Assembly (NCBI GenBank): GCA_001779925.1
Contig: MFEK01000014.1
Coordinates: 1,011-65,010, forward strand
Source of the DNA: Candidatus Doudnabacteria bacterium RIFCSPHIGHO2_01_FULL_46_14
GTDB lineage: Bacteria; Patescibacteriota; Doudnabacteria; UBA920; 2-01-FULL-46-14
Direction: 5' to 3'
DNA length: 64,000 bases
In this document: positions 11,050 to 48,633 of the stretch, piece by piece
How the letters are laid out: each line of letters opens with the position of its first letter
Position numbering within the stretch: the first letter of the stretch is position 1
Translations under genes and position numbers: made by a program
The notes under the pieces: generated by a model
What the model saw: the letters and a program-made list of their open reading frames with translations, nothing else
The model's database searches: none
Told to the model about the DNA's origin: nothing

Positions 11050-12723
11050 ATGACCAAGCTTCAAAAACAATTACTCGCCGGCATTTTATTGCTTGCAGCT
11101 GTGCTGATTTTTTTCCGGCTCACGCGGCACGACCCACTCGGCGATGACGCGCATTATTCTTTCCGCGCAATAGGTTATTTTGATTATCTTGGTTCCAAAG
11201 AGCAGACCACGCCCGTGCAGTGGTTCGGACACCGGCCAGCCTGGTCGTATCTGTCATTCCACGATCATCCGCCCCTGGTGTTTTTGATCCAGCATATTTT
11301 TTTTAGTATTTTCGGGGTGTCGTTGTTTGTGTCTCGTTTGCCGTCGGCCCTGGCCGCCCTGGGCTCGGTATTGGTCATATTTTTTATAGCCAAGCGCCTG
11401 GCTGGCCCCAAAGCCGGGCTGGCCGCCGCCCTGGCTTTGGCTGTAAACAATTATTTTATCTGGACCGGGCGAATCGCTCTTCTCGAAAGCGTCTTTATTT
11501 TTTTCCTGCTCCTGTCTTTTCTATATTTGCTGAAAACGTTTGAGGATTCGAAATATTTTATTCACACCGGTCTTTTTTTCGGCCTGAGCTTGCTTTCCAA
11601 ATATACCGTGCTGTTTATCCTGCCTGCGGTGCTTTTGTTTCTGGTCTGGAAGCACCGATGGATTTTTAAAAATAAAAGATTCTGGCAGGGAATGATGGTA
11701 TTTTTGGTTTTGTGCCTTCCCGTGGTGATTTATAATCTCATGATGTTCAAAACTCGGGGCCATTTCGACGTGCAGTTTGCGGATTTATTCGGGCAGGTTC
11801 ATAATGACTGGCCGAAACTCGCAATGCGAATCAGCAAACCTGATCCGAATTTTTTGGGCGTTTTGACCACGATAGCCGATGGTTTTTCTTGGCCTTATTT
11901 TGCGGCGTTTATTTTGAGCATTTTTTTCAGCCTGCATCTGGCCAGACGCGCTGCCGCAGTCTACCTTTTTGTTTTCGCGGCAGTGTCCTTGTTTTTCTTT
12001 TTTGCCTTTGCCGGCGGAGCTGTCCGGTGGATGGGAGTGCTGGCGCCTTTTGCGGCCCTGCTCGTTGGTTTGGCAGCTGCGGCGTTTGCAGAGCGTAAAA
12101 AATATCTTGCCGCCGCCGTAGCTATTCCGTTTGCCGTCTTTTCAATTTTTTATACATGGAACACCAATCATCTGAAGCGCCCGGTCGCAGGCCCGAATTG
12201 GTATGCCGGATTTCGTTTGGAAAATTACGGGTACAATCAGCTCGACAAGGAAATCTCAAAACTGCTCACTGGCAAAAAACCAACGCCGAAAATTAAATAC
12301 GCGACGACCCAATGGTGGTACCGCGATCTTGATGAAAAAGCAATCGAGTTCCCTATCATTAATCAAGGGGCAGGAGTTTTCGGCTCAGCGATTATCGTTG
12401 ATTCCGAGCACATCTGGTTTCCTATGTATTGGGCCAAAGAAAAATGGAAATTCTATCACCGATTTTCCATTAAAACCTCAAACGAGTTTTTGCAGGTTGT
12501 TGATGCTAAGGGCGGACTCGAGATTATCAATTTTGTGCAGTTTGATAAAATTTACTATTTTAAATCCGGCCCGCGGATCAGGGAGACCGCTGATTTGAAA
12601 TATGAGGGATCTGATCCGCTTTTTGAAGCGATTCTAAAAAAAGGGATCTTACCCAAAATCATTTATGACGACCAGGGCAATGAAGCGTTTTATATGTATG
12701 AAACAAGCGAGCTGGCCATATGA
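11050..12723 (+). CDS. GT-C fold membrane glycosyltransferase (PMT/ArnT-like), second paralog
   Basis: Polytopic membrane protein, N-terminal loop DDAHYSF (DE motif). Ends with TGA that is the first base triplet of junction element J1. Confidence 0.55.
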   Translation: MTKLQKQLLAGILLLAAVLIFFRLTRHDPLGDDAHYSFRAIGYFDYLGSKEQTTPVQWFGHRPAWSYLSFHDHPPLVFLIQHIFFSIFGVSLFVSRLPSALAALGSVLVIFFIAKRLAGPKAGLAAALALAVNNYFIWTGRIALLESVFIFFLLLSFLYLLKTFEDSKYFIHTGLFFGLSLLSKYTVLFILPAVLLFLVWKHRWIFKNKRFWQGMMVFLVLCLPVVIYNLMMFKTRGHFDVQFADLFGQVHNDWPKLAMRISKPDPNFLGVLTTIADGFSWPYFAAFILSIFFSLHLARRAAAVYLFVFAAVSLFFFFAFAGGAVRWMGVLAPFAALLVGLAAAAFAERKKYLAAAVAIPFAVFSIFYTWNTNHLKRPVAGPNWYAGFRLENYGYNQLDKEISKLLTGKKPTPKIKYATTQWWYRDLDEKAIEFPIINQGAGVFGSAIIVDSEHIWFPMYWAKEKWKFYHRFSIKTSNEFLQVVDAKGGLEIINFVQFDKIYYFKSGPRIRETADLKYEGSDPLFEAILKKGILPKIIYDDQGNEAFYMYETSELAI

Positions 12724-12806
12724 ACCGCGTTAGAAATTTTATTCAGCATATACTCAAAAATTTATGATTACATCAGCTATTAACCAAAAGGATTTCTAAC
12801 GGGGTG
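12721..12806 (+). repeat. MITE-like gene-junction element J1 (TIR ACCGCGTTAGAAAT / ATTTCTAACGGGGT)
   Basis: Left end TGAACCGCGTTAGAAAT supplies the stop of 11050..12723. Right end AAGGATTTCTAACGGGGTGAAAA supplies the SD and GTG start of 12804..13913. Confidence 0.8.
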
Positions 12807-13913
12807 AAAATTTTAATTTGTACCGGGATTTTTCCTCCTGACGTGGGCGGTCCGGCAACCTATTCGAAAATTCTTGCAGAAGAACTGGTTAAACATGGCC
12901 ACGCGGTTAAGGTAATTACTTATGCTGGTCGTATTTATCCCCCTTCCCTTGAGAGAAGGGGGACTCTGGGAGAGGCGGATTTTGAATTGATCCGAATTCA
13001 ACGCAGCCGATTCAAACCTCTGCATTATTTCAGATTTTACCGTACCGTTCTGAAACACGGCCGAGACGTTGATGTGATTTACGCTCAAGGTCCGGTTTCA
13101 GAAGGATATCCGGCTTGTCTGGCGGCTAAGAAATTAAATAAACCACTCGCAGTAAAGATAACAGGAGATTACTCCTGGGAGCAGGCGATGGGCCGGGGTT
13201 TAACCGACGAGCTGATTGATGCGTTTCAGAACCTCTCTTTCTACCCTCCAAGAATCCAACGAATGCGCAGAATCCAGAAACTAGTTTGCGATTATGCAAA
13301 TATAATAATCACGCCCTCAGAATATTTAAAAAAGGTTGTTAGCGGTTGGGGGGTAGATCCGGGGAAAATTAGAGTTATTTATAATTCGGTAGAGATGCCA
13401 GAATCAATAATTACGAATCAAGAATCAAGACAAAAGCTAGGAATCCCCAAAGACAAATTTCTAATAGTCTCTTCTGGACGCAATGTACCGTGGAAAGGAT
13501 TTGAATTATTGAAGGAAGTTATGGCAGAATTACAGAAAGATCATCCTGAGATGATGCTGAAAATCCTGCATGATGCGCCGCGCGGGCTGCTCCATGAATA
13601 TATCCGGGCGGCAGATCTGTATGTGCTAAACACCGGCTATGAGGGGTTATCCAATACTCTCGTGGAAGTTCTGCGCCATAGGATACCTGTAATCACCACC
13701 AACGTCGGCGGCAACCCGGAGATAATCAGGGATGGCGAAAATGGGCTACTCGTGGAATACAATAATATAGAGCAGTTGAAAGACGCAATTTTGAGATTGT
13801 ACTCTGACAAAGAATTACGTAATAAATTACGTAATTCTTCCGGCCTGGAAAAATTCGATCTCGCGCAGATGATCAGTAAAACCGAGGAGGTTCTCAAACA
13901 ATGCGCGTCCTAA
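12804..13913 (+). CDS. Glycosyltransferase family 4 (GTG start from junction element)
   Basis: GT4 C-terminal domain (EGLSNTLVEVLRHRIPVITTNVGGNPEII.DGENGLLV). N-terminal-domain loop carries an in-frame GC palindromic insert (IYPPSLERRGTLGEADFE). Confidence 0.8.
   Translation: MKILICTGIFPPDVGGPATYSKILAEELVKHGHAVKVITYAGRIYPPSLERRGTLGEADFELIRIQRSRFKPLHYFRFYRTVLKHGRDVDVIYAQGPVSEGYPACLAAKKLNKPLAVKITGDYSWEQAMGRGLTDELIDAFQNLSFYPPRIQRMRRIQKLVCDYANIIITPSEYLKKVVSGWGVDPGKIRVIYNSVEMPESIITNQESRQKLGIPKDKFLIVSSGRNVPWKGFELLKEVMAELQKDHPEMMLKILHDAPRGLLHEYIRAADLYVLNTGYEGLSNTLVEVLRHRIPVITTNVGGNPEIIRDGENGLLVEYNNIEQLKDAILRLYSDKELRNKLRNSSGLEKFDLAQMISKTEEVLKQCAS
12949..12987. repeat. In-frame GC palindromic element within GT4 gene 12804..13913
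   Basis: CCCCCTTCCCTTGAGAGAAGGGGGACTCTGGGAGAGG. Encodes PPSLERRGTLGEA. Confidence 0.6.
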
Positions 13914-14989
13914 TGATCAGCCTGGACAGGGGACTTTTGGGGGCGGCCGGGTCAGGGGATGTGGCCGAGCGCCATAAAAAATATGCGAGTCTGGCAGGCG
14001 CGCTGGATATTATTGTGTTTGCGTCTCCCAAATATTCACAGCTCACGCTGGCGCCGAATCTGCGGGTATTTCCTACGCGGTCCAGCAAATTCGCGCATTT
14101 TCACCGCGCCGCGGAACTCACAAAAAAATTATTGAAAGAGAATCAGTATGACCTTTTGGTAACCCAGGAATTCACCGCGCCGGCCGGGCTGAAGATCAAA
14201 AAATTTCTTGACATTCCCTGGATCATCAATATTCACAGCATGTTTTTTTCCACGCAGTGGCTGGGGTTTAATCTTATCTATTGGTATTTGTTTTTTCTCA
14301 TGAAAAAATCCATAAGATCCGCGGACGGCTTTCGGGTTACCAATGATGCGATCAGAAAAAAGCTGACTGATTGGGGGATTGCCAAGCCGATTTTGGTGCA
14401 ACCGACGCCAGTGAATATAGAAAAGTTTAAAATAGAAAGCGGAAAGTTCAAAGTTGAAAATCAAAATCCAATAGTGCTGTATGTCGGCAGATTGGAACCT
14501 GAAAAGAATGTTTCACTTTTGATACGGGCATTCAAAAAGCTCAAGGATGAAGCCCAATTGCAGATTGTCGGCAAAGGATCGCAGGAAAAAGAATTGAGAA
14601 GATTGGCCGCCGACGATTTGCGCGTGGAATTTTTCGGAGCGAAATCCTCGGATGAATTGCCGGAGATTTACCGCAGTGCAGACATTTTTGTTCTGCCTTC
14701 AAACTCAGAGAGTTTCGGCAAAGTGCTCATAGAAGCTGGCGCGGCAGGATGCGCCCTGGTTGCGACTGAAACTGCCGGCGCCAAAAGTATTTTGGAAAAT
14801 GATGAGGCGGGGATATTGGTACCGGTTGGGGATACTGCCGCTTTGACCCGCGTTCTGCAAAACCTCGTCGGTAAAAAATTTGAACGAGAGTATTGGGGGC
14901 AAAGAGCTAGGGAAATCTCAAAAAAATACAATGCGGAGACTGCAACCCAGCGGATCATTGATCTGTGGAAGGAGGTCGCGGCAAAATGA
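13901..14989 (+). CDS. Glycosyltransferase family 4
   Basis: ESFGKVLIEAGAAGCALVATETAGAKSIL.NDEAGILVP. 13-bp overlap with the upstream gene. Confidence 0.8.
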   Translation: MRVLMISLDRGLLGAAGSGDVAERHKKYASLAGALDIIVFASPKYSQLTLAPNLRVFPTRSSKFAHFHRAAELTKKLLKENQYDLLVTQEFTAPAGLKIKKFLDIPWIINIHSMFFSTQWLGFNLIYWYLFFLMKKSIRSADGFRVTNDAIRKKLTDWGIAKPILVQPTPVNIEKFKIESGKFKVENQNPIVLYVGRLEPEKNVSLLIRAFKKLKDEAQLQIVGKGSQEKELRRLAADDLRVEFFGAKSSDELPEIYRSADIFVLPSNSESFGKVLIEAGAAGCALVATETAGAKSILENDEAGILVPVGDTAALTRVLQNLVGKKFEREYWGQRAREISKKYNAETATQRIIDLWKEVAAK

Positions 14990-15570: not shown

Positions 15571-16634
15571 AACTCCTTTTTATTACCAGAAAAGTCGACA
15601 TTAACGATCCCATGCAAGGATTTATCTTTTCATGGCTCAATAAATTTGCGTCAAAGCTCGAAAAGTTGTATGTAATTTGCCTGGAAACCGGCGCGGGCAA
15701 CGAGCTTTTGCTGGAAAAAAATATTGAGGTATATTCCATGGGCAAAGAGAAGGGCAAAAACCGTTTGCGGGAATTTTTCAATTATCTCATGTGGCTCAAA
15801 AAAACCGTGCCCCAGTCTGATGGGATCTTTGTGCACATGCATCCTGTGTATGCGATTATTGCTTGGCCGTTTGCGAAACTTTATCGCAAAAAATTAACTC
15901 TTTGGTACACGCACAAAGCCGTGGATCTGAAACTGCGCGTTGCGCATCTGCTCGTTGACATTGTATTTACCGCTTCCAAGGAAAGTTTTCGCATCAAGTC
16001 AAATAAAGTGAAAGAGATCGGTCATGGAATAGATGTTGAGCGATTATCACCTAACTCTCTATTTACAATGAAAAAGAATGGCCATAGGCTTGTATCATTT
16101 GGAAGGATTGCTCCTGTAAAGAAACTCGAAGTCTTGATTGAAGCGATGAATATTCTGATCAACAAAAGAAAATTGGACGTGACTTTGGACATTTTCGGCA
16201 ATGCAGCATTGCCTGCGGATGAAAAGTATAGACAATCGCTAAAGAATAAAATCGTTCAGTATGGATTCGGGAAAAAGGTTGAATTGCTGGACGCAATGCC
16301 ACACACACATCTTATGCAGGTTTTATCATCGTCCTATGATATAGTAATTAATCTTTCGGAAACCGGCAGCATTGATAAAGCGGTAGTTGAGGCCGCTTCT
16401 TGCGGTACGATTGTCATCACCACAAATGAGGCCTTTAAAAACCAACTGCCAAAAATTTCAGATAAGCTGTTTCTCGAGAGAAACGATCCCGAAAAGCTAG
16501 CCAGCAGGATTGCCGAGCTCGTTGCGCTCCCGCAAGACGAGAAAGACCGTTTAGGTGAAGCATTGCGCAATTGGGTTGCTACATCGCACAATTTAGAAAA
16601 TTTGGTTGAGAAAGTAATCGCTGCTTACAAATGA
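15567..16634 (+). CDS. Glycosyltransferase, GT4-like C-terminal domain
   Basis: LVSFGRIAPVKK...ETGSIDKAVVEAASCGTIVITTNEAFK. Terminal TGA is part of junction element J2. Confidence 0.65.
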   Translation: MKLLFITRKVDINDPMQGFIFSWLNKFASKLEKLYVICLETGAGNELLLEKNIEVYSMGKEKGKNRLREFFNYLMWLKKTVPQSDGIFVHMHPVYAIIAWPFAKLYRKKLTLWYTHKAVDLKLRVAHLLVDIVFTASKESFRIKSNKVKEIGHGIDVERLSPNSLFTMKKNGHRLVSFGRIAPVKKLEVLIEAMNILINKRKLDVTLDIFGNAALPADEKYRQSLKNKIVQYGFGKKVELLDAMPHTHLMQVLSSSYDIVINLSETGSIDKAVVEAASCGTIVITTNEAFKNQLPKISDKLFLERNDPEKLASRIAELVALPQDEKDRLGEALRNWVATSHNLENLVEKVIAAYK

Positions 16635-16717
16635 ATCCCGTTAGAAATCTATTTTTCCACAATAATTGCAAATTTTTATGAACTCTGCTATTAACTATAA
16701 GGATTTCTAACTGGGTG
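16632..16717 (+). repeat. MITE-like gene-junction element J2
   Basis: TGAATCCCGTTAGAAAT ... AAGGATTTCTAACTGGGTGAAAA. The interior shares AAATTTTTATGA..CTATTAAC..AAGG with J1. Confidence 0.8.
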
Positions 16718-17878
16718 AAAATTTTATTTGTGGCTTACAAATTCGGCACAGAAAAAGAAATCGGGGAGCATCTCGGTACCTACCATTATTTTATTGAAAC
16801 CCTGCGGCGCATGGTTGCCCTGGGGCATGAGGTTTCTGTTGCTGCGCCGTGGTTGTCTTTTAGGCGACGCGGCAGCGAGGATGTTGATGGGGTAAAAGTT
16901 TTGCGTTACTATCCACCTCTGTTTAACAGGCCGAAATCCCTGCTCGTAAACTGGATATTGCGTTCTTGGTATATTATGGCGACCAGCAGACGAATCCTCG
17001 ACCTTGATCGTAAACAACAGTGGGACGCGATTTGCGTGTGGCAGGCGCGCGAGACCGGCTTTGCCGTGGCGAAAATTGCTTCAAAGCTGCGCGCCCCTTT
17101 TATTTTCCGCCAGATCACGGCCTGGCAATGGCATTTTGAACGGATGAAGCGAGACCGGAAATTTCAGGAAAAATTCGCCAAAGCCATTTATGCTTCTGCC
17201 AAACAAATTATTTTTGTAAGCCGCGCTGCCGCTGATGCGGAACGAGCCTTGGGCTTGCCGGAGGAAAAAATCCGTATTATGGCCGTGGCCATTGAAACCG
17301 ACCTATTCAAGCCTGGAAATCAAAGCAAAAACGGCAATACCATTTTATTTGTCGGCCGAATCAATTTTGCGGAAAAAGGCATTGGCTATTTGCTGGATGC
17401 CATGCCAGAAGTACTGCGCCGACTGCCGGCAGCAAAGCTGGTGATTGTCGGCGGTGGTGGAGAGTCGCAGCGTTTGCTTGCTCAAATAAAAACCCTTGGT
17501 ATTGAAAATTCCGTGCGGGTTGTCGGGGAAAAGCCATTCAACGAGCTTCCTCAGTATTTGAACGCCTCTGATGTGATGGTTGTACCCTCCATATGGCTGG
17601 AGGCTTTCGGCCAGGTTACGATCATCGCCATGGCTTGCGGTGTGCCTGTGGTGACCTCTGACATTGGCGGAAGCGTCGAGATAAACTTGGACGGGCAAAC
17701 AGGCTTTGTGGTTCCCCGGGCTGATTCACACGCGCTTGCCGAGGCGATCCTCAAGATTTTGCGCGATCCGCAGCTTGCCAAAACGCTCGGGCAGAATGCC
17801 CGCAAACGGGTCGAGGAACATTACAGTTACGAGGTTCTGGTTAATAAATTTTTGAAACTGATTGGCGAACTCAAGTGA
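16715..17878 (+). CDS. Glycosyltransferase family 4 (GTG start; no palindromic insert)
   Basis: EAFGQVTIIAMACGVPVVTSDIGGSVEINLDGQTGFVVP. Canonical GT4 loop, useful for comparison with the insert-bearing paralogs. Confidence 0.8.
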   Translation: MKILFVAYKFGTEKEIGEHLGTYHYFIETLRRMVALGHEVSVAAPWLSFRRRGSEDVDGVKVLRYYPPLFNRPKSLLVNWILRSWYIMATSRRILDLDRKQQWDAICVWQARETGFAVAKIASKLRAPFIFRQITAWQWHFERMKRDRKFQEKFAKAIYASAKQIIFVSRAAADAERALGLPEEKIRIMAVAIETDLFKPGNQSKNGNTILFVGRINFAEKGIGYLLDAMPEVLRRLPAAKLVIVGGGGESQRLLAQIKTLGIENSVRVVGEKPFNELPQYLNASDVMVVPSIWLEAFGQVTIIAMACGVPVVTSDIGGSVEINLDGQTGFVVPRADSHALAEAILKILRDPQLAKTLGQNARKRVEEHYSYEVLVNKFLKLIGELK

Positions 17879-17975
17879 ATCCCGTTAGAAATCAGAAGCA
17901 GAAAATTAGAGGTAAATTATGATTAATTATGAAATGGATTCAGAAGAAAAAAAGACCCGAATTTCTAACGGGGTG
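17876..17975 (+). repeat. MITE-like gene-junction element J3
   Basis: TGAATCCCGTTAGAAAT ... CCGAATTTCTAACGGGGTGAATAAA. Confidence 0.8.
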
Positions 17976-18689
17976 AATAAAGCAGTTTTTATTACAGGAT
18001 GTTCAAGCGGCATCGGCGAACAAACCGCATACCAATTCGCGCGCCGCGGCTGGAAACTTGCTGTAAGTTATCATAGTAACCAGGATCAAGGAGAACGAGT
18101 CGTGCGCGAATGCCTGCGTCTCGGAGCTGCTGACGTACTGCTGGTTAAGCTGGAGCTGGTTTCTGATTCCAGCATTGACGATGCGGTGCGGCTGGTTGCG
18201 CGCAAATACGGGAAAATCGATACTTTGATAAATAATGCCGGGACCATAAGGCATAACCTTTTGGCAGATAAATCTTTCCAGGAAATCAGCGAGGAGCTCG
18301 CGGTAAATCTCGATGGCCCTATCAAATTGACTAAAACCTGCCTGCCCTATATCAAGGAGGGAATTATCAATGTCGGCAGCACTCTCGGTTTGACGGGAAA
18401 AAAGACATTATCAGTCTACAGCGCCAGCAAATTCGGTCTCCGCGGATTTACCAAAGCTTTAGCAAAAGAACTGCCGAATTTGCGAATCATTATGATAAAT
18501 CCGAGCCTTACCGCCACCAAGATGGGAAATGCCGGGGGACTGCCGCCCGTAAAGGTCGCCGAGATTATTTACAAAGCCGCAGTCAGCGAGATCGCGGTCC
18601 GTTCGGGAGATGATCTCAATGTGTTTGATTATCTGCGCCACCCAGTGATTCGTTTTTTAAAATACTTTTATAGAAAGATCCGGATATGA
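17973..18689 (+). CDS. SDR-family short-chain dehydrogenase/reductase
   Basis: GTG start inside the element right TIR gives MNKAVFITGCSSGIGEQTAY, the canonical SDR N-terminus. The track's ATG 17919 start would translate the element interior. YSASKFG active-site motif. Confidence 0.75.
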   Translation: MNKAVFITGCSSGIGEQTAYQFARRGWKLAVSYHSNQDQGERVVRECLRLGAADVLLVKLELVSDSSIDDAVRLVARKYGKIDTLINNAGTIRHNLLADKSFQEISEELAVNLDGPIKLTKTCLPYIKEGIINVGSTLGLTGKKTLSVYSASKFGLRGFTKALAKELPNLRIIMINPSLTATKMGNAGGLPPVKVAEIIYKAAVSEIAVRSGDDLNVFDYLRHPVIRFLKYFYRKIRI

Positions 18690-39200: not shown

Positions 39201-39836
39201 ATGAAGTGGATTGTTGTGGTCGGGGCTTTAAGCAGTTTTGGGCAACCGATTTGCAAGAGGTTGTTTGATGCTGGATTTGGCATTTATGGAGTAGGCGTGC
39301 ATCTGAAAAAAGATGTGATTTATGATCCTGCAGTGTTCTCGTTCGACAGGGTTGACATCACCAATAGGGATGATACTGCCGAATTTTTCCGCGGGATCAG
39401 GAAAAAAGAGGTAGCGGGGCTCGTCAATGCTGCGCGGTTTGTACCATCGGTGTCAGATCCAGTTCGGCTAAATCTCGAAGTATCTGTAAGAATGTGGGAG
39501 ACCAATGTTCAGGGACTCGCTTATTTAGTCGACGAATTCATGTCTTCCGCAACGCGAAACCATTGGCCGCCTCCATTGACTGTGGTCGATATCGCTGATT
39601 GCGAACAAAGAGTTGGAGTGCATCCGCTTTTTTCGGCCGCAATGAGCGCAAGACGCAGGATGGGTTTTGAGTTGGCGGCCTTATATCAGAATCTGCGGAT
39701 TAAAACCATTATCCGTAAGGCCGAGGACACGCCGGAGCAGATCGCCGAAGCCGTGGAACTTCTGATGTTCGGGCAGTGCAAAGATTTCATCGGCGAATAC
39801 ACGCCAACACCAGATTCGGACTTTGCAACGAGATAG
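39201..39836 (+). CDS. Divergent SDR-like Rossmann protein
   Basis: VVVGALSSFGQPICKRLFDAGFGIYGV glycine-rich N-terminus. Canonical SD GAGGAGG upstream. Catalytic motifs are degenerate. Confidence 0.4.
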   Translation: MKWIVVVGALSSFGQPICKRLFDAGFGIYGVGVHLKKDVIYDPAVFSFDRVDITNRDDTAEFFRGIRKKEVAGLVNAARFVPSVSDPVRLNLEVSVRMWETNVQGLAYLVDEFMSSATRNHWPPPLTVVDIADCEQRVGVHPLFSAAMSARRRMGFELAALYQNLRIKTIIRKAEDTPEQIAEAVELLMFGQCKDFIGEYTPTPDSDFATR

Positions 39837-39909: not shown

Positions 39910-39996
39910 ATGAACCCCGTTAGAAATCTTAACTTCTTACGGCGGCGACAAATTAAATGATAAGCAAATAATTAAAATAGGATTTCTAACGGGGTG
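39910..39996 (+). repeat. MITE-like gene-junction element J4
   Basis: TATGAACCCCGTTAGAAAT ... ATAGGATTTCTAACGGGGTGAAAA. Here the element's TGA does not terminate an annotated gene. Confidence 0.8.
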
Positions 39997-40746
39997 AAAA
40001 TTTTTATAACTGGAGTATCTTCGGGAATAGGGCAGGAAACAGCCAGGCTTTTGATTTCCGCGGGGCATGAAGTTTGGGGCATAGCCAGAAGAAAGGATTT
40101 ACTGGATAAATTGGCGGATGAGCTGAATTCGCCGTATTTTTTTTATTCCCAGTGCGATGTGGCAATCGAGGAAGATGTAAATAACACTATTCAGCTTATG
40201 GCGGAGAAAAATTTTATGCCTGATGTTGCGGTGCTCAATAGCGCGATTTTTCCAAAAGATCTGAAGGACGGGTTTGATTTCAGTGCTTTTCGAAAGACCT
40301 TTGCCGTGAATTGCTTTGGCGCTTTAATCTGGGTAGAAAAGTTTTTGCCAAAATTTTTAGAAAGAGGCTCAGGAAAATTTTTGGCCATAGCTTCTACCTC
40401 TGCCTTCCGGCCTGATCCGGCAAGCGTTTCTCTGCCTGCCTCAAAAGCGGCTCTGTCCATGGCGTTTCGGAGCATGGGGCTACGTCATAATCAGTCTGGC
40501 GTGAAATTTACCATAGTGTATTTTGGGCCGGTGGCGACTGACATAGTTCCCGAGTTTCGCGATACAAAAGGCCTCGGCAAACTGTTTGTTATGAATCCGC
40601 AGACCGCCGCGCAGAAATTAGTAAAAGCGATTTTTGGTAATAGCGCTATTTATTATTTTCCGTTCTGGCTGACTCTGATTTTCCGCTTGACCTTGTTTTT
40701 GCCAGATCGCCTGTTTTCGGCATTGAGCAAGAAAATAAAGAGATAA
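39994..40746 (+). CDS. SDR-family oxidoreductase (GTG start from junction element)
   Basis: MKIFITGVSSGIGQETARLL; catalytic ...ASKAALSMAF. Confidence 0.75.
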   Translation: MKIFITGVSSGIGQETARLLISAGHEVWGIARRKDLLDKLADELNSPYFFYSQCDVAIEEDVNNTIQLMAEKNFMPDVAVLNSAIFPKDLKDGFDFSAFRKTFAVNCFGALIWVEKFLPKFLERGSGKFLAIASTSAFRPDPASVSLPASKAALSMAFRSMGLRHNQSGVKFTIVYFGPVATDIVPEFRDTKGLGKLFVMNPQTAAQKLVKAIFGNSAIYYFPFWLTLIFRLTLFLPDRLFSALSKKIKR

Positions 40747-42227: not shown

Positions 42228-42400
42228 TGAACCCCGTTAGAAATTCTGGGTGATTGTGACGGGGTCGCATGATTAACCCCGTTAGATATATCTGTAATAA
42301 GTCCTCTAATACTGATTAATAATATGATAATAAGACAGAAATTAACGATAATATTCCATATATATCTAAGCGGGGTTAACCATTTATTTCTAACGGGGTG
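42228..42400 (+). repeat. Composite junction element J5: outer MITE-like element carrying a nested variant copy
   Basis: Outer TIRs ACCCCGTTAGAAAT (42231-42244) and ATTTCTAACGGGGTG (42386-42400). Inner element TIRs TTAACCCCGTTAGATATAT (42270-42288) and ATATATCTAAGCGGGGTTAAC (42361-42381). Confidence 0.75.
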
Positions 42401-43198
42401 AAAATTACTATCCTTGGAGCAGGCACTGACGCCTCAAATTTGCCAGGAATCGAGAACCGATTTCCGCCGGGATATTTTGTGGAGCTAGGGACAGAAAATA
42501 TTTTATTTGAATGTTCCGAGGGCGTAAGATTCAGGCTGGAACAGATGGGGCAAGATTATACTGCTATCAAGCATCTTGCCATTTCTCATTCCCATCCCGA
42601 CCACTATGTTTTGGTCCCGTTTTATCAGTCCATTCATAATAATCTTAACTGGAGCGGCCGCTATGATGAGCCGCACTTGCTGAATATCTATGCGCCGAAA
42701 AATATAACCAGAGAGTTTTGGGATATGTGGCGCATGCATCACCCCAATTTTCCAGAGGGTCTAAAAACTCCGAAATTGAATTTTATAACCATGCCAAGCG
42801 AGTGTAGGGTCGGCGATGCGAAATTATCCGGTTTTTCAGTTTACCATGGCAAAGGCCTCGTGCCTGCTGTCGCTTATAGATTGGAGGCTGGCGGTAAAGT
42901 TTTTGCGTATTCCGGGGACAGTGGAATTTGTGATGGTGTTATCGAGGCGGCGAGAAATGCTGATGTGTTTATCTGTGAAACCTCGGCAGGGATTGATGAT
43001 GAAAAAAGCGGCACTGTCTATGGCCATCTCAATCCGCGGCAAGCAGGGGAGGTAGCCAAGAGCGCGGGAGCCAAGCAAATTGTCTTTGTACATTACACTG
43101 GTCTTGATTCAGACGAAGCTATGATTGAAGACTGTAAAGTTTCGGGCTTCACTGGCAAGGTTGTTGTCGGCAAAGATTTTCAAGTTTTTGAAATATAG
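42398..43198 (+). CDS. MBL-fold metallo-hydrolase
   Basis: HLAISHSHPDHY (HxHxDH zinc motif). GTG start from junction element (MKITILGAG). Confidence 0.7.
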   Translation: MKITILGAGTDASNLPGIENRFPPGYFVELGTENILFECSEGVRFRLEQMGQDYTAIKHLAISHSHPDHYVLVPFYQSIHNNLNWSGRYDEPHLLNIYAPKNITREFWDMWRMHHPNFPEGLKTPKLNFITMPSECRVGDAKLSGFSVYHGKGLVPAVAYRLEAGGKVFAYSGDSGICDGVIEAARNADVFICETSAGIDDEKSGTVYGHLNPRQAGEVAKSAGAKQIVFVHYTGLDSDEAMIEDCKVSGFTGKVVVGKDFQVFEI

Positions 43199-43304: not shown

Positions 43305-43332
43305 CAACGGCTCAACCGCCGTTGAGCCGTTG
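43305..43332. repeat. 28-bp palindrome (12-bp arms)
   Basis: CAACGGCTCAAC-CGCC-GTTGAGCCGTTG. No U-tract follows. Confidence 0.7.
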
Positions 43333-43427
43333 GCCAGTCAGACTGCCCCATTGACATATAGAGTAATTTTGCAGTAAATTTAGCTGTCTATAACGGACAG
43401 CAATTTTCGTTTCTGTAGGAGGAAACA

Positions 43428-44698: not shown

Positions 44699-44793
44699 TC
44701 GCATGGGCGGCAGTGATTTAGGATTGAGGGATGATCCGAATCACTGCTGCTTTTTGTTTGGCTTGAAAAACACGGATTTTTTTTATATACTAC

Positions 44794-45870
44794 ATGCTGG
44801 AACTACAAGGATTATTAACCCAAAAAAATATTAAGGTTTTAGTTACCGGCAATAGAGGATATATAGGTTCCGTGTTTACGGAACTGCTTTTGCAAAAAGG
44901 CCATGAAGTTATCGGATACGATGCGGGATTTTATGACGCGAACGCGCTGGCGGACCTGCCTAAACCAAACCGGCAAATCACCAAAGATATTCGCGACGCT
45001 TCTGCCGAAGATTTCGCCAACATAGAGGCCGTGGTCCATTTGGCGGCACTTTCCAATGATCCACTCGGGGACCTGGCACCTAACCTTACAGAGGAAATAA
45101 ACTTTACAGCCACGGTTCAGTTGGCCAAGCTTGCTTCCGTCGCGGGTATAAAACGATTCATCTACAGCTCGACTACGAGCATCTATGGAATAGCCAATAC
45201 GCAAACCGAGCTTGATGAAGATAGTGAAAAAAAACCGATAACCGTTTATGCCAAGGCTAAATGGGGCGCGGAGCAGGCGCTCCAAAAAATGGGTACAGAG
45301 AGTTTTACCGTGGTGTGTTTGAGGCCGTCCACGGTTTTCGGAGCCAGTCCCAGCATGCGTTGTGATATTGTGCTTAACAATCTGGTGGGTTGGGCTTACA
45401 CTACGGGTAGCATCGAAATCAAAAGCGATGGCACGCCTTGGCGGCCAATGGTGCACGTCCGAGACCTATCCCAGGCTTTTATTGCCGCGCTTGAAGCTCC
45501 TCAAGGATTAGTCGCGGGCGAGGCGTTCAATGTCGGAAGACCAGACGGCAATTTTACTGTTCGGCAGCTGGCAGAGGCGGCCGCGCGCGCGGTACCCGGA
45601 AGCAAACTGTATTTTGCCCAACATCAGGCTTTGGATTCGCGGACGTATCGCCTGAATTTTAAAAAAATCTTGACGGTATTGAAAGATTATTACCAGCCGC
45701 AGTGGGATATTGACCGTGGAGCCCGGGAGCTTGTGGATTTTTTTAAAAAAGTTAATTTTACCGAAGAACAATTTCACGGTCGCGTCTGCAACCGGCTCGC
45801 CCACATTAAATTTCTTATGGAAAACGGCCAGCTCGACGAAAATTTATATCATACAAATGAAGCTTCATAA
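44794..45870 (+). CDS. NAD-dependent NDP-sugar epimerase/dehydratase (extended SDR)
   Basis: KVLVTGNRGYIGSVFTELLLQKGHEVIGYD; YAKAKWGAE (YxxxK). Confidence 0.75.
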   Translation: MLELQGLLTQKNIKVLVTGNRGYIGSVFTELLLQKGHEVIGYDAGFYDANALADLPKPNRQITKDIRDASAEDFANIEAVVHLAALSNDPLGDLAPNLTEEINFTATVQLAKLASVAGIKRFIYSSTTSIYGIANTQTELDEDSEKKPITVYAKAKWGAEQALQKMGTESFTVVCLRPSTVFGASPSMRCDIVLNNLVGWAYTTGSIEIKSDGTPWRPMVHVRDLSQAFIAALEAPQGLVAGEAFNVGRPDGNFTVRQLAEAAARAVPGSKLYFAQHQALDSRTYRLNFKKILTVLKDYYQPQWDIDRGARELVDFFKKVNFTEEQFHGRVCNRLAHIKFLMENGQLDENLYHTNEAS

Positions 45871-46381
45871 AACCAATCTTGAGGGGGTTTATGTCGTCGA
45901 GCTTGAGCCCAAGGAAGACGAGCGCGGATCTTTTACCAGGATCTTTTGTCAAAACGAACTCTCTGGACAGGGGATTTCATTCAACATTGCCCAGTCAAAC
46001 CTGTCTATCAATAAACACAAGGGCATTTTGCGCGGCCTGCATTTTCAAAAACCGCCAAAAGCCGAAGACCGGATCGTGCAGTGTTTGAAAGGCGCGATTT
46101 ATGATGTGGCTCTCGACCTGCGGCCAGATTCGCCGACATACGGAAAATCGTTTGCCGCAGAGCTTTCCGAGTCCAACCCGAAATCAATGTATATCCCGAA
46201 AGGCGTGGCGCACGGCTTTCAAACTCTTGCGGATGACAGCCGCGTTCTTTATTTTATGTCCGAATTTTATTCGCCAGAGCATTATTTCGGAGTTCGGTGG
46301 GATGATCCGGCCCTTGGCCTCGACTGGCCGATAAAAAATCCTATTCTTTCTTCCCAAGATCAAAACTGGCCATATATATGA
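45857..46381 (+). CDS. RmlC-like cupin: NDP-4-dehydro-6-deoxyhexose 3,5-epimerase family
   Basis: ATG at 45857 (MKLHKTNLEGVYVVE...DERGSFTRIF...GILRGLHFQKPP...QCLKGAIYDVALDLR..SPTYGK). The track start at 45710 overlaps the previous gene in another frame. Confidence 0.8.
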   Translation: MKLHKTNLEGVYVVELEPKEDERGSFTRIFCQNELSGQGISFNIAQSNLSINKHKGILRGLHFQKPPKAEDRIVQCLKGAIYDVALDLRPDSPTYGKSFAAELSESNPKSMYIPKGVAHGFQTLADDSRVLYFMSEFYSPEHYFGVRWDDPALGLDWPIKNPILSSQDQNWPYI

Positions 46382-46449
46382 ACCCCGTTAGAAATGTCTG
46401 TAAATTTCAGCGAGCGGTGCATAATTAATAATTAATTTCTAACGGGGTG
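46379..46449 (+). repeat. MITE-like gene-junction element J6 (shortest copy)
   Basis: TGAACCCCGTTAGAAAT-gtctgtaaatttcagcgagcggtgcataattaataatta-ATTTCTAACGGGGTGAAAA. Confidence 0.8.
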
Positions 46450-47325
46450 AAAAAAATATTACTCATCGGCGCCACAGGGCAGCTAGGCAGCGCTATTTTA
46501 TCAGACACTCCCTCTTTTGGACTTGAGGTTGTTTATTTTCCCAAAGCCGAGCTGGACGCGGCCAACAACATTCAAGTAGAAGAAAAAATAAAAGCGACCG
46601 GGCCTGACATTCTCATTAACACTTCAGCCTACCATCTACTGCCGGAATGCGAAGAACATCCTGAGAAAGCCATGGAGGTCAATGTCGCGGCAGTGTACCG
46701 GATGGCCAAGTTGTGCAAGCAGTACGGCGTCACCTTTGTTAATTACTCTACCGATTACGTGTTTGATGGAGAGAAGGGGAGCTTGAACGCGGAAATTGAC
46801 CCGGTTCATCCTTTGCAGATTTATGGCATTTCCAAGGCTGCCGGTGAATTCGCAGTCATGGACGCGCATAAAGAAGGCAGTTTCATTATCCGCACCAGCG
46901 GGCTTTACGGCGGCCGAACAGGCAGCCGCAGCAAAGGCGGAAATTTTGTCTTGAATATCATCAAAGAAGCGCAAGGGAAAGACACGCTCGAGGTGGCCAG
47001 CGAACAGATTGTCAACCCGACCTATGCCGGACATTTAGGCGCCGCCAGCTTGCGGCTGCTTTCGAGCGGAGCCGCGCCCGGAATTTACCATTTGGCGAAC
47101 GAAGGGTATTGCAGTTGGGCGGAATTTGCCACTGAAGCTTTTCGCTTGGCTGGAAAACGGACGCGCGTAATACCGGTTGACCGGGGAGGAAAAAATGGTA
47201 TAATAACGAGACCTAAGTTCTCAGCGCTGGAAAATATCAAGGCAAAAAAACTCGGAATAAAGCTTCCTTCTTGGCAAGAGGGACTCGTTTCCTATTTTAA
47301 TTTTTTAAATTCGCCGACCAAGTAG
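46447..47325 (+). CDS. RmlD-like NDP-4-dehydrorhamnose reductase family
   Basis: MKKILLIGATGQLGSAIL; YGISKAAGE (YxxxK). GTG start from junction element. Confidence 0.8.
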   Translation: MKKILLIGATGQLGSAILSDTPSFGLEVVYFPKAELDAANNIQVEEKIKATGPDILINTSAYHLLPECEEHPEKAMEVNVAAVYRMAKLCKQYGVTFVNYSTDYVFDGEKGSLNAEIDPVHPLQIYGISKAAGEFAVMDAHKEGSFIIRTSGLYGGRTGSRSKGGNFVLNIIKEAQGKDTLEVASEQIVNPTYAGHLGAASLRLLSSGAAPGIYHLANEGYCSWAEFATEAFRLAGKRTRVIPVDRGGKNGIITRPKFSALENIKAKKLGIKLPSWQEGLVSYFNFLNSPTK

Positions 47326-47331
47326 TCAGTA

Positions 47332-48549
47332 ATGAAAAAGCATAATAAAAATTCCATGCTCCGTGTGCCGTATGCGCTCTCCGTGCATGGCCGCGAAGAA
47401 TCTCAGGCTGTTAGCCGGGTTATCGATGAACACCGGACAGCTCTTGGCATAGAAACTCGGTCCTTTGAGAAAGACGTGGCCAGGCTTTTCGGAAAAAAAT
47501 ACGGCATCATGGTCAACTCCGGTTCTTCAGCGAACCTTTTGGCGTTCGAGCTTTTAAATCTGCCTCGCGGTTCAGAGGTGATTACTCCGATTCTTACTTT
47601 CAACACCACGGTCAGCCCGATACTCCAGAAAGGGCTGGTGCCTGTGTTTGTGGACGTCAAGCCGAAAACTTTTCTCGCTGATCTTGACCAGATCGAAAAG
47701 AAAATTACCAAAAAGACCAAGGTTCTGATGATTCCCTCACTGATCGGCAATGTTCCGGATCTGCCGAAGCTCCAGCGGCTCGCGCGCAAGCATAAGCTTT
47801 TTTTGATTGAAGATTCCTGCGACACGCTCGGTGCCACGTTTAAAGGAAAGCCGACAGGCAGGTTTTCTGATATATCGACAACCAGTTTTTATGGGTCGCA
47901 TGTCATAAACGCGGCGGGAGGCGGCGGGATGATTTGCGTAAATGATCCGCGATGGCGGGACCGTTTGCTCATGCTGCGTGGCTGGGGCCGAACCTCCGCG
48001 TTGTTTGCCGATTCGGAAAAATTTTCAGAGAGATTTAAAATGAAGCTTGTTGGCGTTCCTTATGACGGGAAATTTATTTTTTCCGAGGTCGGCTACAATT
48101 TTCTGCCGCTGGAGATCAGCGCGGCTTTCGGACGGGTGCAGCTCAGGAAACTGCCGAAATTTACCAAAATTCGCCAGGGAAATTTTGCCGGTTTGCTGAA
48201 ATATTTCCGCCGTTGGGAGAAATATTTTGAACTGCCGGTGCAGACTCCCGGGACTCGGACCAACTGGATCGCTTTTCCGCTCGTGATCCGGGCCGGCGCG
48301 CCTTTTTCCCGCATCGAGATTGTAAAATTTTTGGAAACGCGTAATATTCAAACCAGGCCGGTTTTTTCCGGGAACATTCTGCGCCAGCCAGCATATGTCA
48401 GGCTCGCGAAATCCAAGGGCCTCGCAAAATTTCCTGTTGCTGACAGGATCATGAGAAACGCGTTCGTGGTCGGTTGTCATCATGGGCTGACGGAGCGCCA
48501 TCTGCGGCGTCTCAAGCATGTATTTGACCAGTTTTTGAAAGCTTTATGA
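47332..48549 (+). CDS. DegT/DnrJ/EryC1/StrS-family PLP-dependent sugar aminotransferase (second copy)
   Basis: YGIMVNSGSSANLLAFE; LIEDSCDTLGATFKGKPTG; VGCHHGLTERHL. Stop TGA is part of J7. Confidence 0.8.
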   Translation: MKKHNKNSMLRVPYALSVHGREESQAVSRVIDEHRTALGIETRSFEKDVARLFGKKYGIMVNSGSSANLLAFELLNLPRGSEVITPILTFNTTVSPILQKGLVPVFVDVKPKTFLADLDQIEKKITKKTKVLMIPSLIGNVPDLPKLQRLARKHKLFLIEDSCDTLGATFKGKPTGRFSDISTTSFYGSHVINAAGGGGMICVNDPRWRDRLLMLRGWGRTSALFADSEKFSERFKMKLVGVPYDGKFIFSEVGYNFLPLEISAAFGRVQLRKLPKFTKIRQGNFAGLLKYFRRWEKYFELPVQTPGTRTNWIAFPLVIRAGAPFSRIEIVKFLETRNIQTRPVFSGNILRQPAYVRLAKSKGLAKFPVADRIMRNAFVVGCHHGLTERHLRRLKHVFDQFLKAL

Positions 48550-48633
48550 ACCCCGCGTTAGAAATTTCCGATTACAACGGTATAACTATAATTATGAAAA
48601 TAATATTAACTCAAAAGGATTTCTAACGGGGTG
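48547..48633 (+). repeat. MITE-like gene-junction element J7
   Basis: TGAACCCCGCGTTAGAAAT ... AAGGATTTCTAACGGGGTGAAAA. Confidence 0.8.

Follow-up and report, generated by a model that had tools for sequence, protein, structure and literature searches.

The 64,000-bp stretch of Candidatus Doudnabacteria DNA analysed here (the window) carries polysaccharide genes, several of which begin at copies of one short repeat. Sixteen matches to the end motif ACCCCGTTAGAAAT (at most two mismatches) occur in the window, compared with 0.42 expected, and none of 100 shuffles of the window reached this number. The matches pair into seven elements, between 65 and 167 bp long, which bears out the seven repeats, and their positions, noted in a sequence-only reading of this DNA; a decayed copy comes in addition. 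Each of the seven is flanked by a direct TGAA repeat and ends in 13-bp inverted repeats, CCCCGTTAGAAAT and ATTTCTAACGGGG; that reading had recognised the inverted ends but gave them as 14 bp long, the fourteenth pair being the T...A of the flanking TGAA. All seven copies share one orientation (forward strand) and lie exactly on gene starts.

Copy 1 (12721..12808; TGAA at 12721-12724, an 80-bp element at 12725-12804 and TGAA at 12805-12808) lies between a PMT-family glycosyltransferase gene, whose stop TGA occupies 12721-12723, and a GT4 gene with its GTG at 12804. Copy 2 (16632..16719; TGAA 16632-16635, 80-bp element 16636-16715, TGAA 16716-16719) joins a GT1 gene (stop 16632-16634) to a GT4 gene (GTG 16715), and copy 3 (17876..17977; TGAA 17876-17879, 94-bp element 17880-17973, TGAA 17974-17977) joins a GT4 gene (stop 17876-17878) to an SDR gene (GTG 17973), where the original start was GTG because base -1 is G. 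Copy 4 (39911..39998; TGAA 39911-39914, 80-bp element 39915-39994, TGAA 39995-39998) sits on the start of an SDR gene (GTG 39994); its TGA is not a gene stop, since the preceding gene has already ended 75 bp before it. In a divergent intergenic region, copy 5 (42228..42402; TGAA 42228-42231, 167-bp composite element 42232-42398, TGAA 42399-42402) occupies the start of a metallo-beta-lactamase-fold gene (GTG 42398). Nested within it on the same strand (42273..42379) is a 99-bp variant (42277-42375) with the ends CCCCGTTAGATATAT and ATATATCTAAGCGGGG and its own TTAA direct repeats, which is direct evidence of transposition. Copy 6 (46379..46451; TGAA 46379-46382, 65-bp element 46383-46447, TGAA 46448-46451) separates rmlC (dTDP-sugar epimerase, stop 46379-46381) from rmlD (GTG 46447), and copy 7 (48547..48635; TGAA 48547-48550, 81-bp element 48551-48631, TGAA 48632-48635), with a 2-nt insertion in its left end, separates a DegT-type aminotransferase gene (stop 48547-48549) from a nucleotidyltransferase gene (GTG 48631). 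A probable decayed eighth copy (7189..7260, forward strand; CTCCATTAGAAAT ... ATTTCCAAATGGGG), whose flanks are no longer identical, lies in a divergent intergenic region upstream of UDP-glucose-dehydrogenase-like genes.

As had been proposed, five of the seven copies have the stop codon of the upstream ORF in their left TGA (ORF ends 12723, 16634, 17878, 46381 and 48549), and the GTG made of the element's last G and the following TG is the downstream start in all seven, with Pfam coverage and an orthologue N-terminus in agreement. Specifically, Pfam domains of the downstream proteins align from residues 2-4, leaving no space for an alternative start, and orthologues of one of these proteins have their N-terminus, MKI..., at the same position. 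The description of a MITE-like family sitting exactly on gene junctions holds. The AAGGA inside the right end, taken for a conserved ribosome-binding motif, is present in three of the seven copies, with TAGGA in a fourth.

Target-site duplication and spread across genomes

The same reading had understood the repeat as a cassette that donates a stop and a start, and here the relatives speak differently. Gene order is conserved in the syntenic relatives L126-L129, in which TGAA stands only once at junction 2; the empty site orthologous to copy 2 reads ...AAATGAAAAT..., and empty orthologous junctions read ...AAA-TGAA-AAT..., already an ATGA stop/start overlap. Because these junctions hold a single TGAA, the TGA and the TG of the GTG are host sequence duplicated at insertion, and the element itself contributes only its terminal G, which takes the place of the A in the original ATG, plus AAGGA in some copies. 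The reverse case also exists: the SDR/GT1 junction of the window is a plain ATGA, and L129 carries a 282-bp element there.

Across genomes, identical 4-bp flanks accompany 78 of 136 copies, compared with 2 of 136 in a shifted control; against a strict duplication, the flanking repeats are off by one base in 20 of the 136 and by more in 38. The flank spectrum is led by TGAA (32) and TAAA (29), followed by TCAA, CAAG and others, and, of 77 sites that could be reconstructed, 70 have a purine at -1. Insertion duplicates 4 bp of the target, with the consensus R|TRAA, and the two copies of this duplication provide the stop TGA and the TG of the new GTG. In the window operon, all copies entered an (A/G)TGAA start codon, five of the seven being ATGA stop/start overlaps. 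The left TGAA thereby preserves the upstream stop, while the right TGAA and the element's terminal G rebuild a GTG start in the original frame, so that the host genes survive; sequence comparison shows each of these steps.

At the junctions compared, relatives differ by the element alone and not in gene content. This bears on integron attC-like or REP/REPIN-type sites, served by a tyrosine integrase or a RAYT (HUH) transposase, which would mark cassette boundaries. Size and symmetry are indeed similar, and the position between genes of a variable polysaccharide cluster would suit such sites. However, the polarity GTT...AAC is the reverse of that of attC, whose consensus is RYYYAAC...GTTRRRY, the 4-bp duplication is variable, no integrase or RAYT gene was seen at the loci examined, and the same ends recur in more than ten phyla, unlike species-specific REPs. 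The likeness to attC that had been pointed out is superficial, and we consider this explanation hardly credible.

A scan of GTDB genomes placed the same ends at no fewer than 119 loci in those phyla. The host genes adjoining the copies are unrelated from genome to genome, and the interior is hypervariable, ranging from almost none (copies of 29-38 bp in all) to about 150 bp. Among TGAA-flanked copies in other genomes, A or G stands at -1 in 32 of 32, and about 28 of the 32 lie on the start of a long ORF; copies with TAAA flanks, roughly one half of the total, lie between genes or at 3' ends. The view that copies elsewhere keep to gene junctions thus stands for the start-bound TGAA class and not for the TAAA class. 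A crude neutral model predicts about 19-39% of copies at starts, compared with about 88% observed in the TGAA class; this enrichment could reflect purifying selection and not targeting. One insertion is common to two Desulfobacterota species (L012 and L020), indicating long persistence.

Full-length relatives with a GIY-YIG gene

No full-length copy was found in the window or the next 10 kb of its contig. The close relative L129 carries two identical 282-bp copies with TGAA flanks at different, non-homologous sites of one contig. Each encodes a 93-aa ORF that matches the Pfam GIY-YIG domain (E = 1.9e-13). Its start codon is the captured host ATG; the frame continues across the left end (MNPVR...) and closes with a TAA within the right end (...KDF*), which leaves 4 nt to the restored start of the host gene. 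AAGGA is here also the Lys-Asp codon pair at the C-terminus of the protein of full-length relatives. There are at least 1204 homologous protein clusters, the best 120 of which are 70-84% identical; NPVR[SN] lies at the N-terminus or close to it in about half of these 120, and most have ...FFFA-x-(D/G)-F as their C-terminus. Catalytic-type residues are invariant among the homologues and the protein sequence is strongly conserved. Both ends were present, 281-285 bp apart (one 319 bp), at 75 of 80 metagenomic homologue loci, most of them with matching 4-bp flanks. When flanked by TGAA or TGAG, full-length copies lie on a host start codon in 25 of 26 cases; read in ORF orientation, the flank is TGAA 20 times and TTCA never.

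The termini of the window copies are identical over 16-18 nt to those of one full-length subfamily (L158/L159/L175/L176), and their mini-ORFs mimic both termini of the nuclease, MNPVRN... being encoded at the left end and, in copies 1, 2 and 7, ...KDF* at the right. Copy 1 holds two relay mini-ORFs, MNRVRNFIQHILKNL and MITSAINQKDF, linked by an ATGA overlap, the second ending at the TAA at 12797, and copy 7 holds a single 26-codon ORF (MNPALEIS...TQKDF*) that opens with the captured ATG (48546) and closes with the TAA of the right end. However, only 16-25 terminal nt of the window copies align to the nuclease gene and their interiors do not, so that the case for descent by internal deletion is built on the ends and the mini-ORFs. 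A further point against is that full-length copies were found only in Patescibacteria-type records, whereas short copies also occur in Planctomycetota, Desulfobacterota and other phyla. Taken together, we think it probable (roughly 0.8) that the window repeats are non-autonomous MITEs whose full-length kin are units of about 283 bp, made of one 86-93-aa GIY-YIG gene between inverted ends of 13-16 bp. Our literature search returned no description of this kind of element and no publication on the family, and Rfam gave no match to it, in line with the earlier impression that it is not a described class.

The GIY-YIG protein would most likely make the staggered cuts that move both full-length and miniature copies, although we know of no precedent for a 93-aa GIY-YIG domain alone excising and integrating DNA. 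Closest by sequence and fold are UPF0213/YhbQ-type small GIY-YIG proteins and Slx1, the nearest solved structures being the UPF0213 protein BH0048 and the Slx1 nuclease domain: 1zg2 gave a profile match at E = 2.9e-6 and is also the top Foldseek hit, and Slx1 chains reach a TM of 0.55-0.61 (query-normalised). Slx1 is, according to structure entry titles, a cutter of branched DNA, which would fit an element nuclease that, by analogy, might act on a cruciform arising from the inverted ends. Slx1, for its part, depends on Slx4 and possesses a RING domain in addition; the literature search returned no paper describing mobility, terminal inverted repeats or a target duplication for UPF0213/YhbQ proteins or Slx1.

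The piggyBac end sequence, CCCTAGAAAGATA, invites comparison with the left end of the window elements. The piggyBac TIRs are about 13-14 bp long with CCC/GGG as first three bases and come with a 4-bp TTAA duplication (PMC10140906), and IS1380 is the prokaryotic relative of piggyBac (PMC10140906; PMC5718144). The repeats could accordingly be MITEs of the ordinary kind that belong to a DDE insertion sequence, such as one of this lineage, with the GIY-YIG ORF a passenger or unrelated: they have piggyBac-like TIRs with CC... ends, a 4-bp duplication, and a similar TRAA target with occasional TTAA flanks. Unlike in piggyBac and IS1380, however, the target is TRAA or TATG, not TTAA, and about 1 Mb of loci yielded no DDE/DDD transposase enclosed by such ends, the sole protein-coding form found being the 281-285-bp unit (one 319 bp). 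Its conserved ORF, moreover, begins and ends inside both ends at 75 of 80 independent loci, a fit too tight for a passenger. We therefore regard DDE parentage as quite improbable and the resemblance as a lead only.

GIY-YIG homing endonucleases such as I-TevI and the Seg proteins are likewise nucleases of this fold encoded by selfish genes, but their DNA-binding domain is long, as is their specific target, and they leave neither inverted ends nor a duplication. It is very unlikely that the nuclease gene here is a free-standing homing endonuclease gene, spreading into homologous empty alleles through double-strand-break repair and not by transposition, with the short copies as decayed relics. 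In favour of such a gene are the GIY-YIG domain, a weak NCBIfam match to group I intron endonucleases (E = 1.8e-5, below cut-off) and a report of GIY-YIG ORFs at scattered insertions, other than introns, in CPR rRNA genes (PMC11270868). In contrast, the 93-aa protein is a bare catalytic domain that has no DNA-binding extension, copies adjoin dozens of unrelated genes with only 4-5 bp of sequence in common, identical copies occupy two non-homologous sites of one contig, and terminal inverted repeats with 4-bp flanking duplications are not products of homing.

Translation of host genes across the insertion

In full-length copies, the nuclease ORF would borrow the displaced host ATG together with the host ribosome-binding site and, judging from this architecture, be translated from host signals; translation of the host gene would then follow by termination-reinitiation or begin at an in-frame ATG within the element. 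Such an ATG is present at the gene-facing end in 28 of 40 copies, compared with 5 of 40 at the opposite end; copy 3 has an internal ATG (17919) that shares the frame of the SDR gene (...RISNGV-NKAVFITG). In the mRNA, both ends of the element are predicted to pair as a 13-18-bp stem that runs from 1 nt past the upstream stop to the start codon. Predicted stems range from -16 to -57 kcal/mol (z -1.8 to -5.3), with an MFE of -17.7 kcal/mol in copy 1, an 18-bp stem of -27.9 kcal/mol in copy 4 (z = -5.05) and -23.9 kcal/mol in copy 6 (z = -4.2). Operons and RNA phages know translational coupling by secondary structure, in which a stem hides the downstream initiation region. The stem predicted here would likewise hide that region, begins right after the upstream stop and would be opened by the terminating ribosome, but it is brought by a mobile element.

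Along the lines of the sequence-only reading, one may see in this a regulatory linker selected by the host, a portable stop/hairpin/RBS/start cassette that couples or tunes translation of polysaccharide genes, with mobility secondary. The common orientation of the seven window copies exactly on starts, a stem spanning the SD and start region, the bias of in-frame ATGs towards the gene-facing end and the persistent insertion of L012 and L020 would all agree with it. Nevertheless, we consider it unlikely, for both the stop and the TG of the start belong to the target and not to the element, and relatives possess the same operon without the element, its genes overlapping by a plain ATGA. Nor would a linker predict unrelated neighbours across genomes, TAAA-flanked intergenic or 3' positions for about half of the copies, interiors varying from almost none to about 150 bp, or a full-length form encoding a predicted nuclease.

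As probable MITEs of a GIY-YIG element, the repeats resemble bacterial MITEs (Correia/NEMIS, ERIC, RUP, BOX) and Rickettsia palindromic elements (RPEs), which likewise are short, have terminal inverted repeats and target duplication, occur in many copies, are transcribed with neighbouring genes and can supply or overlap stop codons. They differ from known MITEs in that the partner with the same ends is the GIY-YIG unit and not a DDE or HUH transposase gene, that copies with TGAA flanks insert at start codons in exact register and restore them, and that the same 13-bp ends extend over so many phyla. BOX repeats encode the 3'-end stop codon of 36 pneumococcal CDSs (PMC3049150), and RPEs can be read in frame (PMC10969869). 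As a separate observation, the GT4 gene of L129 has an in-frame, RPE-like insertion of 35 aa.

Seven elements in a glycosylation cluster

A search of the window for ACCCCGTTAGAAAT, allowing up to two mismatches, returned 16 matches against 0.42 expected. These matches pair as inverted repeats into seven elements of 65 to 167 bp, with left TGAA flanks that begin at positions 12721, 16632, 17876, 39911, 42228, 46379 and 48547 (copies 1 to 7), confirming the family proposed by the sequence-only reading; a decayed eighth copy lies at 7189-7260. The 13-bp ends are perfect in copies 4, 5 and 6 and carry one or two mismatches in copies 1, 2 and 3, and copy 7 has a 2-nt insertion in its left end. None of the copies contains a complete gene for a mobility protein; they code for mini-ORFs of 8 to 26 codons at most. 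The elements are embedded in a large glycosylation cluster (PMT-type, GT1/GT4, SDR, rmlCD and DegT genes), whose closest named homologues belong to Patescibacteria such as Doudnabacteria, at 60-63% identity. The window sequence itself has matches in metagenome assemblies only, and six metagenomic contigs that contain it are 99.96-100% identical, with the elements present in all. Copies 1 to 7 are confined to 36 kb of glycosylation operons (12721-48635), with the decayed copy upstream. No copies were found in the approximately 25 kb that follow copy 7 (window positions 48636-64000 and the next 10 kb of the contig), a stretch that also holds glycosyltransferase genes. This clustering could be explained by local hopping or by the density of ATGAA overlaps.

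We then examined how the elements abut their neighbors. The ORF ends agree that a TGA abutting the left end is the upstream stop codon in five copies, and the ORF openings that the GTG at the right end is the downstream start codon in all seven. In the Pfam domains of the downstream genes (short-chain dehydrogenase, RmlD, nucleotidyltransferase and GT4), profile positions 1-3 align onto residues 2-4. Moreover, the GT4 protein encoded from 16715 has 115 homologues, of which nearly all full-length ones start with MKI/MKL/MRI..VAYKFG at the same position. Both the domain coverage and the homologous N-termini thus identify the GTGs as real starts. Two ORFs of the cluster deserve separate mention. 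At 7283-8909, two adjacent, overlapping ORFs of 276 and 272 aa match UDP-glucose/GDP-mannose dehydrogenase domains (Pfam run on the first ORF, precomputed gene-call matches for both); since the split pair also occurs in two relatives that share the window's gene order (L126 and L129), it looks more like two short paralogues conserved in tandem than like a pseudogene with a frameshift. The ORF at 39201-39836, upstream of copy 4, covers the N-terminal ~120 of 195 positions of the short-chain dehydrogenase model, below the Pfam cut-off, and may be a truncated paralogue of the SDR gene beyond copy 4.

Target duplication and position relative to genes

All seven window copies are bracketed by TGAA, in the arrangement (A/G)TGAA-CCCCGTTAGAAAT ... 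ATTTCTAACGGGG-TGAA. Because the six window-bearing contigs are all filled, empty sites had to be taken from relatives at ~67-72% identity, namely the syntenic loci L126-L128 (GT4 72% identical) and L129 (NCBI GCA_964349925.1, 67%). Their GT1|GT4 junctions, ...CAGAAATGAAAATCGGC... and ...TTTAAATGAAGCTTTG..., are ATGA stop/start overlaps with a single TGAA and no element. What the window has in addition is the element and 4 bp. Given the single TGAA at the empty sites, the idea that the element donates both the stop and the start does not hold, since both are duplicated host sequence. Comparison of filled and empty sites shows that the left TGAA preserves the upstream stop. The right TGAA adjoins the terminal G of the element, so that ATG-AAA becomes G|TG-AAA, which accounts for the seven GTG starts and for the next codon always being AAA or AAT. 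The genes are thus spared, with the stop/start overlap duplicated and the start rebuilt. The reverse case is found at the SDR|GT1 junction, a plain ATGA in the window and in L126-L128 that reads ...CCGA-TGAA-[282 bp]-TGAA-GATATT... in L129. L126-L128 carry no copy, and the five copies of L129 are at other junctions. Nested in copy 5 is another element, which has variant ends and TTAA repeats of its own. Taken together, identical copies, a nested copy and filled and empty orthologous sites show, as far as sequence can, that the mobility is recent.

To describe the spread of the family, we scanned one genome per GTDB species for exact CGTTAGAAAT-N39-69-ATTTCTAACNGGG. At least 119 loci match, all of them in MAGs, and they place the same 13-bp ends in more than 10 phyla, with many Patescibacteria lineages, Planctomycetota, Desulfobacterota, Omnitrophota, Elusimicrobia, KSB1, Nitrospiraceae and others represented. 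The interiors are highly diverse, from almost nothing (29-38-bp copies) to ~150 bp. Identical 4-bp flanks border 78 of 136 copies and 20 more differ by one base, compared with 2/136 in a control shifted by 2 bp. TGAA (32 copies) and TAAA (29) lead the spectrum, followed by TCAA, CAAG, CTCA, CCCA and others, and a purine precedes the duplication in 70 of 77 reconstructed sites, giving the target R|TRAA. At the level of these alignments, insertion with a 4-bp duplication into R|TRAA and regeneration of the start codon is established. The possibility that solo ends are the termini of long insertion sequences was rejected, as all proved to be very short (~35 bp) or diverged copies. Minimal copies of ~29-38 bp are barely more than two ends (e.g. 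CCCCGTTAGAAATCCAATTTCTAACGGGG; L098:~4380-4430, L068:~4730-4775 and L130:3962-3990), and it appears that an element needs no more than its ends to persist, and perhaps to move.

The base before the duplication is A or G in all 32 copies with TGAA on both sides, so that a TGAA-flanked site reads as a start codon. About 28 of these 32 coincide exactly with the first codon of a long ORF; the genes are unrelated and include ones with tsaD-like, pth-like and pilin-like N-termini. By a crude census, ~19% of non-genic RTGAA sites in the same loci, and 39% in the window, fall on ORF starts, and the start bias therefore exceeds site availability. It may reflect either targeting or purifying selection, which are inseparable here. 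The TAAA-flanked copies are never on starts; they occupy intergenic DNA, the position directly 3' of a tRNA gene or the final codons of a gene. Thus, the expectation that copies elsewhere would also mark gene boundaries stands for the TGAA class but not for the TAAA class. One copy directly 3' of a tRNA gene (L097:~2780-2870) reads ...CTCGCTATCCGCA|TAAA|TCCCGTTAGAAAT. Orientation relative to the gene is non-random: an in-frame ATG lies 2-14 codons upstream at the gene-facing end in 28 of 40 cases, versus 5 of 40 at the far end. The gene-facing ATGs yield N-terminal extensions of the form M-x(n)-ISNGV, and gene callers are liable at these sites to predict such spurious extensions or to miss GTG starts. 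A link to one gene family was rejected by an all-against-all ORF comparison across 119 loci, which revealed no common neighbor. Separately, a 101-bp copy with TTTA flanks lies inside the orthologous GT4 gene of L129 (10596-10696; NCBI GCA_964349925.1, contig CAYGIP010000004.1), where it is translated in frame without a stop and adds 35 residues (TPLEARYPANG...KLLTG), an in-frame, stop-free insertion like those of the Rickettsia palindromic elements.

Full-length relatives with a GIY-YIG gene

Five elements lie within 15 kb of L129. Identical 282-bp copies with TGAA flanks occupy 11965-12246 and 14291-14572, each with a 93-aa ORF that spans the entire element. The ORF starts at the flanking (A/G)TG, runs through the left end as ATG AAC CCC GTT AGA AGT (MNPVRS) and stops at a TAA inside the right end (...AAG GAC TTC TAA CGGGG|TGAA). 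Its product is a GIY-YIG catalytic domain (PF01541, E = 1.9e-13, 50.9 bits vs a cut-off of 22.6). Across the homologues, the Tyr, Gly, Arg, Glu and Asn residues characteristic of the fold do not vary. The solved UPF0213 protein BH0048 (1zg2) matches by profile at E = 2.9e-6 and is the top Foldseek match (probability 1.00), and the full-length relatives are UPF0213/YhbQ-like both by sequence and by fold similarity to BH0048. Homologous proteins form at least 1204 clusters. Among the best 120 of these, lengths are 84-109 aa (mostly 86-93) at 68-84% identity, about half carry NPVR[SN] at or near the N-terminus, most end in ...FFFA-x-(D/G)-F, and every entry with an organism name is from Patescibacteria.

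An alignment-based metagenome scan found 347 relatives. In 75 of the 80 loci kept, both ends are present 281-285 bp apart (one at 319 bp), and most have matching 4-bp flanks. Among 26 distinct full-length insertions with TGAA or TGAG flanks, 25 fall on the start codon of a host ORF that runs on for 130-370 codons, and the duplication reads TGAA in the orientation of the ORF in 20 and the complement TTCA in none. A second full-length class duplicates TATG, the right copy being the host ATG, with an internal MWYVY as the start of the nuclease ORF. In many subfamilies the last codons are ...CAT/TAT GAC TTC TAA, whose +1 frame (ATG ACT TCT AAC GGG GTG) supplies an ATG for a new host protein start (MTSNGV...) that overlaps the nuclease stop. 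These comparisons show a predicted nuclease ORF that is conserved and co-extensive with the element. TAAA-flanked full-length copies (L134, L137, L140, L141 and L145) interrupt a long host ORF 5-10 codons from its start. Their nuclease ORF continues from the host N-terminus in a register that differs from the TGAA class, and the host ORF resumes in the ISNG frame from an ATG overlapping the last nuclease codons. In some cases (proteins P0213, P0218 and P0222, loci L186 and L205) a right end (...TSNGV-WYVY...) stands ahead of the GIY-YIG gene itself, one element having landed on the nuclease start codon of another.

The window copies share 16-18 terminal nt with one full-length subfamily (L158/L159/L175/L176), and for copies 1 and 2 the stretch in common with a 78-bp copy in L129 reaches 25 nt. 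Their interiors do not align to the nuclease gene, the alignment being limited to the terminal 16-25 nt. The coding remnants fit the full-length layout: the mini-ORFs begin with a captured ATG/GTG followed by NPVRN-like codons; copies 1 and 2 have a 15-16-codon ORF, an ATGA overlap and a second ORF ending ...KDF* at the right-end TAA; copy 7 has a single 26-codon ORF from ATG to the right-end TAA; and the second ORF of copy 3 continues in frame into the SDR gene. The ...KDF* remnants imply that the AAGGA taken for a Shine-Dalgarno motif is also the Lys-Asp codon pair of the nuclease C-terminus, and the motif may act in both capacities. The window and the next 10 kb of the contig hold no full-length copy. 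The metagenome that contains the window sequence also contains full-length copies (JGI 3300025323, Ga0209542 contigs), a link at the level of the metagenome.

Classification and proposed mechanism

Judged by sequence, the window copies are MITEs in every respect: they are short, have terminal inverted repeats, duplicate a target that is single at empty sites, are dispersed, vary in presence between relatives, and share their ends with a longer coding element (the 281-285-bp units, with one of 319 bp). What sets the family apart from bacterial MITEs described so far is the kind of partner it has, its start-codon register and its phylogenetic breadth. Derivation from IS1380/piggyBac was attractive for the CCC ends and the 4-bp T..A duplication. 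It was dropped as the main reading because no DDE/DDD transposase ORF lies between the ends, in the window or at ~200 loci; the sole ORF found there is the GIY-YIG gene. The catalytic domain of GIY-YIG homing endonucleases is present in the full-length relatives and not in the window copies. A usual homing endonuclease gene was rejected, since the 86-93-aa protein is the catalytic domain only, with no separate DNA-binding domain, and the insertion sites share only R|TRAA or TATG instead of a long specific target. Integron attC sites have an R''-L''...L'-R' layout, with RYYYAAC first and GTTRRRY last, and are linked to an integrase; here the order is GTTAGAA...TTCTAAC on both strands and the window has no integrase gene, so we rejected this assignment. 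REP/REPIN sequences have no target duplication, are species-specific and are associated with an HUH (RAYT) gene. They too were rejected, given the 4-bp duplication, the same ends in more than 10 phyla and no RAYT gene seen.

The Rfam 15 covariance models gave no match in the whole window at the gathering score; at an E-value threshold, the stretch spanning copies 4 and 5 gave one chance-level match that overlaps neither copy. We found no paper on the end sequence, and a literature search on MITEs, start codons, CPR and GIY-YIG returned no description of the family. Among papers outside subscription journals, none was found that connects GIY-YIG proteins in prokaryotes with MITEs, target duplications or terminal inverted repeats. 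Within that scope, the family appears, as first proposed, to be an undescribed mobile MITE-like family at gene junctions. Patescibacteria have been predicted to be donors of a GIY-YIG catalytic-domain gene, along with other repair genes, to other bacteria by horizontal transfer (PMC12455944).

The best-supported interpretation is that the window copies are MITEs of a tiny GIY-YIG element living on start codons. The parent element may be a new class of transposon. In its full form, to which we assign a probability slightly below one half (about 0.45), the ~283-bp unit of two 13-16-bp inverted ends and an 86-93-aa GIY-YIG gene would be an autonomous transposon of a new mechanistic class. A bare GIY-YIG nuclease, rather than a DDE, HUH, serine, tyrosine or Cas1 enzyme, would be its transposase; with no promoter or RBS of its own, it would land in register on a host start, use the host initiation signals and return the ribosome to the host gene, and the short window copies would be its MITEs. 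The nuclease would be translated from the host's own initiation region, and the host gene by reinitiation 4 nt past the TAA or from an overlapping, element-borne ATG. The predicted RNA stems have minimum free energies of -16 to -28 kcal/mol (-57 for the nested copy) and z of -1.8 to -5.3. In the mRNA, the ends would pair as a 13-18-bp stem from one nt past the upstream stop to the start codon, and a terminating ribosome could melt it, preserving coupling. The GIY-YIG protein would make staggered cuts, possibly on a cruciform of the two ends, which by analogy would fit its kinship to Slx1: its closest solved relatives are the Slx1 nuclease domain, which processes branched DNA, and UPF0213 BH0048. 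It is tempting to speculate that cutting and religation with 4-nt cohesive ends would account for both the duplication and precise excision.

If the GIY-YIG protein does move these elements, it would be a new enzyme class for prokaryotic transposition, and the element would amount to a minimal selfish gene, in which the transposon ends are at once the first and last codons of a single small nuclease domain. IS200 is among the smallest known insertion sequences; to our knowledge, an autonomous unit of ~283 bp, less than half that size, would be the smallest known autonomous mobile element. Through its start-codon register, the family illustrates how mobile DNA can colonize genomes that have almost no intergenic space, such as those of Patescibacteria. 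The elements are also markers of recent insertion in glycosylation operons, and there could be interest in developing a small nuclease of this kind, with defined ends and a 4-bp target, into a tool. Identical 13-bp ends in so many phyla of uncultured bacteria raise the question of how the family spreads. Phages were rejected as the vector, since 2.9 million viral contigs contained one short copy and no full-length one. Two different Desulfobacterota MAGs carry the same copy, with an 87-bp interior, at the same syntenic position (L012:~6000-6091 and L020:~5240-5333); its flanks have diverged (TGGA/GGAA vs TGAA/TGAA), and it is an old insertion retained through speciation.
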